From contig CAYUOR010000004.1 in NCBI GenBank assembly GCA_964446535.1, positions 1 through 46,380 of the forward strand: 46,380 bases of DNA, given 5' to 3'. The position numbers and the translations under genes were made by a program. Under the pieces are notes generated by a model that worked only from the letters and a program-made list of their open reading frames with translations, had not been told where the DNA came from and ran no database searches. This stretch comes from an uncultured Candidatus Saccharibacteria bacterium (GTDB taxonomy: Bacteria; Patescibacteriota; Minisyncoccia; Phycocordibacterales; Zambryskibacteraceae). Below, in pieces: positions 24,770 through 25,961 of this stretch (position 1 is the stretch's first letter; each line of letters opens with the position of its first letter).

Positions 24770-24802
24770 AACAAAAACCCGCCTTGTCGGCGGGTTTTTG
24801 TT
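24770..24802. terminator. bidirectional intrinsic terminator
   Basis: Perfect 14-bp stem AACAAAAACCCGCC / GGCGGGTTTTTGTT between convergent genes. Confidence 0.9.
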
Positions 24803-25302
24803 TATCTTCGAGCGATTTCGGATTCAGCGAACTTTGCCCAACAAGCGGATGAAGACATCCAGGGCTTAGCACCCTCTTTCTCGTAGAGATAACGCGCATA
24901 TTTGACGTTATCCTCGAGATCATGGACATCAAGACCCATCTCAACGGCTTTTTCGCCATGGTAGAGAATGTTGATCTGCATCACACCCCTGTCGTAGCTG
25001 TTCTCTTCTCCTTTCAGAATACTGCCTTTTGAGTTGTAGTGTCTGTAATGCGATTCGCATCCGGCAATCTTTGCCATGATAGGAATATCGGCAAAGTAGT
25101 CGTTAACGAATTTTTCAACGTTCTTTACGTCCGTAATCGGTCCATAGTCTTCAACTCTGACTTCCTTAGGTGCCCTATCCTGTGCTATTCGAGGATCTTC
25201 GTTGTTACCCGTTATAAGCGATGTTATCGCCGGTAAAACGTCAACAGCGGAAGAAGAAAGACTGAAGAGAAGACTGATAGTCGTAAGCTGTAAAATAACA
25301 AT
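24802..25302 (-). CDS. secreted lysozyme-like/lytic transglycosylase protein; 5' start uncertain
   Basis: IAGCES (catalytic Glu), DRGVMQIN, NVKYARYLY, KPWMSSSACW; frame stays open from 25347 with a hydrophobic N-terminus but no ATG/GTG/TTG before 25077. Confidence 0.8.
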   Translation of the reverse strand: MVILQLTTISLLFSLSSSAVDVLPAITSLITGNNEDPRIAQDRAPKEVRVEDYGPITDVKNVEKFVNDYFADIPIMAKIAGCESHYRHYNSKGSILKGEENSYDRGVMQINILYHGEKAVEMGLDVHDLEDNVKYARYLYEKEGAKPWMSSSACWAKFAESEIARR

Positions 25303-25382
25303 AGGATAAACTGCTAATTTTAGGTTGCCGTAGAGGTCATTTCTCTCCTAAACAAAAAGCCAGCACCTGCTGACTTGCTCAT

Positions 25383-25411
25383 ATACTAGCACACAAGGGT
25401 CTTGATGTCAA
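25383..25411 (-). promoter_or_regulatory. sigma70 promoter TTGACA-17-TGnTAGTAT
   Basis: TTGACA 25411-25406, TAGTAT 25388-25383. Confidence 0.8.
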
Positions 25412-25469
25412 GTAATTTGTGTGGTGAAATTTATATAAAATGGCTCTGTTGAGCCATTATTTTGCGATT

Positions 25470-25961
25470 TTAACGAGGCGAGCAATTCAGGGCCAGAGTG
25501 TAGCCAGCCGCTTCTGCCTCGCCAGGGCTCTTAAAGTAGATTTTGTTCTCTTCTTTTATCTGTTTGGCACCGGAGCAATAGAGGAAATGATATCTCTCCC
25601 CGTTTTTTGAAGCCACCACCTGCGCTTCCGAGGGCAAAACTTGTGTATTTTCAAGATAATTTGAAGTATTAGCACCCGCCACACTCGGTACCGAGGGCGT
25701 CTTAGAGGTGTTAAAGGTATCGCTTATAGGAGTTATAGACGGATCTAGCTCTATTTTCGGAGTAGTCCTCTCCCCCACAATCGAGAGTCTGCCTAAGCCG
25801 AACGACAATGTCCCGACGAGAATTATGACAATAGGCACAAAGAATTTTCTGAATCTCGGAAAACGAACGACTTCCCCACTCTCATCATAGGAGAATTCCT
25901 CTGTTTTGTGGCTAACTTCTTCCATTTTCTTGATTTTTTCTGTAGTCTGGTCTATACTCAT
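25470..25961 (-). CDS. membrane-anchored protein with C-terminal Ada-like metal-binding domain
   Basis: One TM segment, Ser/Thr linker, VASKNGERYHFLYCSGAKQIKEENKIYF...AGYTLALNC. Confidence 0.75.
   Translation of the reverse strand: MSIDQTTEKIKKMEEVSHKTEEFSYDESGEVVRFPRFRKFFVPIVIILVGTLSFGLGRLSIVGERTTPKIELDPSITPISDTFNTSKTPSVPSVAGANTSNYLENTQVLPSEAQVVASKNGERYHFLYCSGAKQIKEENKIYFKSPGEAEAAGYTLALNCSPR

Follow-up and report, generated by a model that had tools for sequence, protein, structure and literature searches.

The DNA analyzed here is a 46,380-nt stretch (the window) of contig CAYUOR010000004.1 in assembly GCA_964446535.1, from an uncultured Candidatus Saccharibacteria bacterium, and the element in question is a gene on its minus strand that is predicted to encode a small, putatively lysozyme-like protein behind a strong promoter and a structured leader. 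The features of the locus are collected in Table 1. An earlier reading made from the letters alone (the sequence-only reading) had described a TTGACA-17-TGnTAGTAT promoter, a hairpin with a U-run resembling a terminator, an ATG at 25340 that encodes only MTSTAT*, and a hydrolase frame offset from that ATG. All of these are in place. The promoter lies on the minus strand where it had been placed and scores 10 of 12 matches in our scan, with the TG of the extended -10 box present; the hairpin is scored as terminator-like in the same scan; and the short upstream open reading frame (uORF) runs from ATG 25340 to its TAA. The hydrolase frame is open from 25347, directly after a TAG at 25350-25348, and its first ATG, GTG, or TTG is the ATG at 25077, which is only six codons ahead of the conserved C-E-S motif. 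In-frame ATT codons occur at 25302 and 25296. The P1 hairpin begins 7 nt after the -10 box, and in 35 aligned relatives CTTGAC(A/T) and TGnTAnnnT are kept at a constant distance from it. The ACCACA box further upstream could be an UP-like element or the binding site of a regulator for a very strong promoter. Since the promoter, the hairpin, the second helix, and the ATT are all conserved across ∼100 related loci, these features represent more than chance.

Table 1. Features of the putative lysozyme-like gene and its leader, in window coordinates
Feature	Coordinates	Strand	Remarks
ACCACA box (often GACCACA)	25420-25425	-	Conserved; ∼9 nt 5′ of the -35 hexamer; in nearly all close relatives (L001-L041)
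Sigma-70-type promoter	25383-25411	-	-35 TTGACA 25411-25406, 17-nt spacer, extended -10 TGcTAGTAT 25391-25383
P1 hairpin, 8 bp	25357-25376	-	DNA AAGTCAGC/GCTGGCTT, loop AGGT, then TTTTTGTTT; RNA AAGUCAGC/GCUGGCUU, loop AGGU; U-tract 25358-25354
P2 5′ strand UUUAGG	25347-25352	-	Pairs with 25324-25319; overlaps AGGAG
P2 loop, 22 nt	25325-25346	-	Semi-conserved GAG..(U)ACGG..NGC.A; holds the incidental ATG 25340
P2 3′ strand CCUAAA	25319-25324	-	Holds the uORF stop TAA 25322-25320
AU-rich linker, 22 nt	25297-25318	-	Invariant UUA 25317-25315; no Shine-Dalgarno sequence; candidate single-stranded ribosome landing region
Proposed start AUU	25294-25296	-	From the aligned-codon census and the onset of periodicity
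Coding sequence	25296-24802	-	164 codons + TAA; conserved C-E-S at 25059-25051
Probable intrinsic terminator	24773-24794	-	CCCGCC-GACAA-GGCGGG, then a T-run; A-run on the other flank; read from sequence

We retrieved 160 related loci and worked with subsets of 132 non-redundant loci, 70 non-redundant close leaders, and 75 proteins. At the codon aligned with ATT 25296-25294, the 132 non-redundant loci, which extend to ∼40% protein identity, carry ATT in 121 cases, ATC in three, ATA in one, and ATG in four; in a fifth ATG-bearing locus, the ATG is one codon upstream of the aligned position. No in-frame ATG, GTG, or TTG is found from the last upstream stop to the ATT codon and hydrophobic segment in 63 of the 70 close relatives, and the next canonical start in this set occurs 6 to 106 codons downstream of ATT (73 codons after ATT 25296 in the query locus). 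In-frame stops are present within the nine codons upstream of ATT in 28/70 relatives, versus 0/70 in the 16 codons from ATT on; in 22/70 the stop, nearly always TAA, is located 3-4 codons 5′ of ATT. The entropy at the three codon positions is 0.49, 0.13, and 1.08 bits from ATT on, as compared to 0.80, 0.80, and 0.85 bits in the nine upstream codons. Three-base periodicity starts at the ATT codon, and none is seen upstream of it. On this comparative evidence, the start-less appearance of the frame is family-wide and not an error or a frameshift, and AUU 25296 is most likely the start codon, as in ∼120 of the 132 relatives. A non-AUG start had been one of the options of the sequence-only reading, and it is the one that the conserved AUU (121/132) and the coding boundary at this codon bear out; of the two AUU codons it had put forward, 25296 is conserved and 25302 is not. 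It had also pointed to the upstream regions of homologs as the place to look for a conserved uORF, AUU, and covarying stems, of which the latter two are found and the first is not.

The absence of a Shine-Dalgarno sequence ahead of the AUU is in keeping with the rest of the window, where SD-like GGAG, GAGG, or AGGA motifs are located 5-16 nt upstream of only 3 of the 38 long ATG-started open reading frames (8%, versus a background of 7.3%). Shine-Dalgarno motifs are, by this measure, not used in this genome. A TAnnnT box, on the other hand, ends 4-9 nt ahead of the ATG in 16/38 of the long open reading frames, versus a background of 8.7%, and this spacing of the -10 box suggests that many of the genes in the window are leaderless. 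The AGGAG that had been taken for a ribosome-binding site leading to ATG 25340 is indeed present at 25349-25345; the role assigned to it does not hold, since the motif overlaps P2 and SD-like motifs occur at genome background.

The predicted 82-nt leader is a conserved structured RNA that consists of a 5′-terminal hairpin with a U-tract (P1), a second helix (P2), and the AU-rich linker that ends at the AUU. RNAalifold on a MAFFT alignment of the leaders returned P1 only; P2 was recognized by eye and by a helix search and was then tested. For P1, 100% of the cells in the MAFFT alignment are paired, with GC to AU and CG to GC double changes, and in an alignment of 97 loci 99.2% are paired, with double changes at five of the eight pairs. 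As U·G is the commonest pair at one position, P1 is expected to pair as RNA rather than to serve as a DNA operator, and because the -35 hexamer, the extended -10 box, and the ACCACA box all keep a fixed spacing from the hairpin, P1 is placed at the predicted 5′ end of the transcript. For P2, compensatory variants are plentiful (TTTGGG/CCCAAA, TTTGAG/CTCAAA, CTTGAA/TTCAAG, ATTGGG/CCCAAT, TTGAGAG/CTCTCGA, AAGGG/CCCTT, AGGAG/CTCCT, and TAAAGGG/CCCTTTA), the highest mutual information anywhere in the leader is that of a pair within the helix (GC 23 / AT 22), and the 97-locus alignment contains double changes at all six pairs. The distance from P2 to the ATT is 22 ± 2 nt in most relatives.

Taken together, P1 and P2 show 94.8% paired cells in the unbiased MAFFT alignment, versus no more than 61.7% with slid partners, with double changes at five pairs; the alignment contains 20 double-change cells, as compared to 4.7 in shuffles. 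With the model-fitted alignment of 97 loci, 96.9% of the cells are paired and 11 of the 14 pairs have double changes. A covariance model has one match in the window (25294-25378, 92 bits) and matches 96 of the 99 related loci searched (E ≤ 1e-4), each time directly upstream of the homologous gene, so far as can be judged from these loci associating the motif only with this gene family. A cmscan search of Rfam at E ≤ 10 returned only chance-level matches, with just a 12-bit match to "srg1" on the minus strand of 25290-25380. Two further elements were considered and dropped: a longer P2 that would take in the U-tract (CUUUUC with UAGAAG), where changes in the partner are uncompensated, and pseudoknots of the P2-loop ACGG with UAUCC or CUGU, which are inconsistent by eye and by mutual information.

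The P2 loop is 19-23 nt long, or 31-49 nt where an insert folds into a hairpin of its own (L002, L007, L011, L014, L026, and L027). Such extra self-complementary inserts, 10-50 nt in length, are seen either in the P2 loop, in these six relatives, or between the U-tract and P2 (L006, L012, L020, and L040). Structured RNAs often have variable stems that take up inserts at defined places in this manner.

Translation from the AUU gives a product of 164 residues with a 19-residue hydrophobic, signal-like segment (mean hydropathy of residues 1-19, 1.28), a variable linker, and a conserved domain of ∼115 residues with the pattern PKEV..EDY.PITD..NVE.F..DYF.DIP...IA.CES ... GVMQIN ... and two conserved Cys residues. 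Counted from the AUU, residue 19 is the last position of an AxA-type signal-peptidase motif in 66 of the 75 relatives; this corresponds to a normal signal-peptide length, and the product is probably secreted. The I/M-L-Q-L-T-T sequence at its N-terminus (25240-25296 and relatives) is far more conserved than is usual for signal peptides. Given this strong conservation, the RNA sequence of the first codons may be under constraint as well.

The 536 homologs found were all seen in Patescibacteria (Zambryskibacteria, Minisyncoccia, and Parcubacteria). Pfam SLT_3 scores 15.3-15.7 bits with this protein, against a gathering threshold of 27; it matches 13 of 18 members, below threshold (best E-value 4.6e-4), and SLT and C-type lysozyme each match three members weakly. 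A profile search of PDB sequences gave no match. The AlphaFold2 model has a predicted local distance difference test score of 69.9 overall and ∼80 in the domain, and its only significant structural neighbor in BFVD is A0A516MN84, an unnamed viral protein (27% identity, E = 4e-4), a hint that a homolog is present in a phage that infects these bacteria. The lysozyme-like or lytic-transglycosylase-like label, the former already used in the sequence-only reading, is therefore reasonable but unproven, and with SLT_3 below threshold and no structural match it is weakly supported. It is preferable to regard the product as a family of its own, restricted to Patescibacteria and with a putative activity.

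We regard as quite probable the overall reading that arises from these data, namely an intact, AUU-started gene for a secreted protein behind a strong promoter and a P1/P2 leader. Several observations weigh against it. AUU is a poor start codon in model bacteria, and AUU 25296 has neither a Shine-Dalgarno sequence nor another defined recruiting element upstream. The AxA-site sequence of this protein is A-V-D, with a D at -1 that is unfavorable for cleavage, and none of the 75 proteins has a Lys or Arg in the first 14 residues, so that the charged n-region is missing, which is unusual. The lysozyme-like assignment depends on sub-threshold Pfam scores, and a Foldseek search of the AlphaFold2 model against PDB found nothing with E < 1. 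P1 and its U-tract have exactly the form of an intrinsic terminator, a form that a hairpin serving only as a stabilizer would not need, and no covariation is seen in either of two candidate helices by which the AUU would be occluded. Finally, the leader was not found in RNA runs, where the sole, low-depth contig (24899-25283) is within the coding sequence and stops short of the leader. This contig, 385 nt in length, carries one single-nucleotide polymorphism (SNP), 25108 G>A, and derives from a run labeled as another organism (X4); it reflects either a bacterium contaminating or associated with the sample, or DNA in the library.

If this reading is correct, transcription from the strong, conserved promoter would begin at ∼25377 and yield, in order, the 8-bp P1, the U-tract, the P2 stem-loop, a 22-nt AU-rich single-stranded stretch, and the AUU. 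A 5′-terminal hairpin is a classic mRNA stabilizer, and P1 may act as one here. The U-tract and the linker, the only extended single-stranded regions of the leader, could plausibly be the loading sites for SD-independent, S1-type binding of the 30S subunit. Initiator tRNA would decode AUU 25296-25294 as formylmethionine to start M/I-LQLTTISLLFSLSSSAV..., the 19-residue signal-like peptide, and ATG 25340 and AGGAG would be by-products of P2 and its loop sequence. The weak AUU start may keep the output of a potentially self-lytic enzyme low despite the strong promoter, or make it dependent on initiation factor 3 (IF3), growth, or the translational state; low or IF3-dependent output through AUU, as in infC, is an analogy and not evidence. 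These features suggest that the leader serves in mRNA stabilization and in SD-independent, possibly regulated, initiation.

The explanation that competes best concerns the leader only and leaves the AUU start true. It takes the leader for a riboswitch or an attenuator operated by a protein, in which either P1 and the U-tract form a real, promoter-proximal terminator or the AUU is alternately exposed and occluded, the outcome being set by a ligand, a protein, or temperature. P1 does conform to the GC-rich hairpin plus U-run of an intrinsic-terminator attenuator; the scan score is terminator-like, and hairpin and U-run are retained even in the most distant leaders. Unpaired nucleotides of the P2 loop and the linker are conserved as well, and wall-hydrolase genes are often controlled by riboswitches, ydaO being an example. 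However, P1 is at the extreme 5′ end of the transcript (+1 to ∼+28), where there is no room for a competing upstream RNA, an antiterminator, or a leader peptide. One feature of the minimum free energy fold would suit a switch: AUUUUA at the AUU and the A-run within the 3′ strand of P2 can become partners in a 12-bp start-occluding helix (AAAAU.AGAAGU / ACUGUU.AUUUU), with 74% of cells paired. This helix contains no double changes, is not above shuffles, and is not supported. A small CUGU/ACAG hairpin around the AUU is 77% paired and likewise shows no covariation. With zero compensatory changes in the alternative helices, which do not rise above shuffled controls, no switch is demonstrated. Moreover, Rfam contains no aptamer that matches, even with E ≤ 10 allowed, and the stability of the single-sequence fold is unremarkable (z = -0.6). 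The regulated attenuator or riboswitch of the sequence-only reading is therefore upheld as to the structured leader, given that P1 and P2 covary, and not as to regulation, for which there is neither a demonstrated switch nor an Rfam family. We consider such a device improbable, though it is the alternative to be taken most seriously.

Much less probable is a start at a different near-cognate codon (for example, ATT 25302 or one of CUG or AUA type upstream) or translation of the leader as an N-terminal extension. Ahead of 25296, the frame has 17 codons free of stops in the window, ATT 25302 among them, and many relatives keep this frame open too. Nevertheless, the codon at 25302 is ACT, AAT, ATC, or another codon in the relatives, in-frame TAA codons precede the invariant ATT by 3-4 codons in 22/70 relatives, and the upstream codons lack periodicity. 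An extended signal peptide would also measure at least 36 residues, which is atypical.

A programmed -1 frameshift at ACC-UAA, by which a start at ATG 25340 would join MTSTAT to LKLAVYP..., is very improbable; in its favor are the position of the ATG 4 nt after AGGAG and the fact that the fused product would enter the hydrophobic segment. Between the U-tract and the ATT, 46 of the 70 close leaders contain no ATG at all, and in the other 24 its frame and position are variable; this argues that the MTSTAT* uORF is incidental, as judged across the leaders, and excludes the frameshift as a mechanism of the family. Further, the local sequence, GCA-ACC-TAA, provides no X XXY YYZ slippery site, 28/70 relatives have in-frame stops between the uORF region and the ATT, and the AGGAG belongs to helix P2 in a genome that does not use SD motifs. 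The frameshift option of the sequence-only reading can be given up on these grounds.

Its remaining option was a 1-nt deletion or assembly error; this, like a recent pseudogenizing mutation as another way to lose an ATG-initiated frame, is contradicted just as firmly. An out-of-frame ATG does lie roughly where a longer N-terminus could begin, but three DNA runs, belonging to two studies, gave independently assembled contigs that match 25288-25520 gap-free (a bioreactor metagenome is the source of two of them and a drinking-water metagenome that of the third, whose strain differs by only a few SNPs), 63/70 relatives equally lack a canonical start, and the downstream open reading frame is under clear purifying selection.

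Around the gene, the probable terminator at 24773-24794 sits between the convergent lysozyme-like gene and small open reading frames downstream of an M23 peptidase, and weak Rfam matches of terminator, leader, and small-RNA type cluster on this hairpin. Because an A-run flanks it, the hairpin could act in both directions, and bidirectional termination between the convergent genes is probable. Upstream, 25470-25961 on the minus strand encodes a 163-residue protein with a transmembrane segment and a C-terminal tail like the Ada-Zn-binding or "sunset" domain (sub-threshold Pfam and NCBIfam matches); this gene has its own terminator hairpin, AATGGCTC-AACA-GAGCCATT, at 25458-25439.

Known systems resemble parts of this arrangement. 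In E. coli, infC (encoding IF3) and pcnB have a conserved AUU start, where initiation is expected to be weak and discriminated against by IF3, making it a possible control point (see also PMC5499595 and PMC9723500). As in these genes, a near-cognate AUU is kept as the start across a gene family here. In contrast, infC has a Shine-Dalgarno sequence and a product that is itself the sensor, whereas the present gene has no SD, encodes a predicted secreted wall enzyme, and carries a structured leader; the host genome is also largely leaderless, and a dependence on IF3 is assumed by analogy. The 5′ untranslated region of E. coli ompA and the aprE and ermC leaders of B. subtilis resemble the present leader in that a strongly transcribed mRNA, coding for an exported protein, has a stable hairpin a few nucleotides from its 5′ end. 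Unlike P1, whose UCAG...CUG stem is nearly invariant, these stabilizers have no conserved U-tract and no sequence conservation across genera, and the 5′ end in the present case is a predicted one. The ydaO/c-di-AMP riboswitch (RF00379) is likewise a conserved structured leader ahead of a secreted peptidoglycan-hydrolase-type gene; however, the leader described here is far smaller, with two helices, no evident ligand pocket or switching helices, and no Rfam match. None of these three (infC/pcnB, the 5′ stabilizers, and riboswitch leaders) is a family match. As for the product, the C-E-S followed ∼22 residues later by G-V-M-Q-I-N recalls the "ES" and "GLMQ" of SLT in family-1 lytic transglycosylases (SLT and SLT_3), and the product is likewise small, putatively secreted, and mostly helical, but it falls below the Pfam threshold (15.7 versus 27 bits) and has no PDB profile or Foldseek match. 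In the literature searched, we found no paper in which Patescibacteria, Parcubacteria, or the Candidate Phyla Radiation are mentioned along with AUU or ATT as a start codon. In the present family, the supposed Shine-Dalgarno sequence is taken up into the covarying helix P2, and ATT and ATG exchange at a single position.

The corrected start changes how the family is seen. All public gene calls seen for its 536 proteins either truncate the protein, with the loss of the export signal, or extend it through the promoter and hairpin. Calls that start with "QVSRCWLF" are the P1 hairpin translated, those with "MLAFRLG" represent the P1 3′ arm and U-tract in another frame, and others begin at internal Met residues past the hydrophobic segment. 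With the start at AUU, the family is revealed as a small protein with a predicted N-terminal, export-type signal peptide, preceded by a compact, well-covarying leader motif that is new to Rfam and tied to this gene family only. It would also represent deeply conserved AUU initiation without a Shine-Dalgarno sequence in a lineage of mostly leaderless genes. In E. coli, IF3 antagonizes both leaderless and non-AUG initiation, which suggests that these organisms may have relaxed start-codon discrimination. Patescibacteria are ultra-small bacteria that live on other cells, and a strongly transcribed, tightly translated, putatively muralytic enzyme could plausibly serve this way of life or pose a hazard in it. 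The regulatory logic of the leader can be taken one step further, to a proposal that we rate as unlikely, if somewhat less so than a riboswitch or attenuator: P1 and the U-tract, P2, the linker, and the AUU may together be a dedicated module for SD-independent initiation and control in Paceibacteria-type Patescibacteria, in which the near-cognate start is licensed by a leader on which the ribosome docks or to which a factor or ligand binds. Were this the case, synthesis of a secreted, wall-cutting enzyme would be tied to the level of IF3, to translational capacity, or to a signal, and the enzyme might be used on the host cell during episymbiosis.

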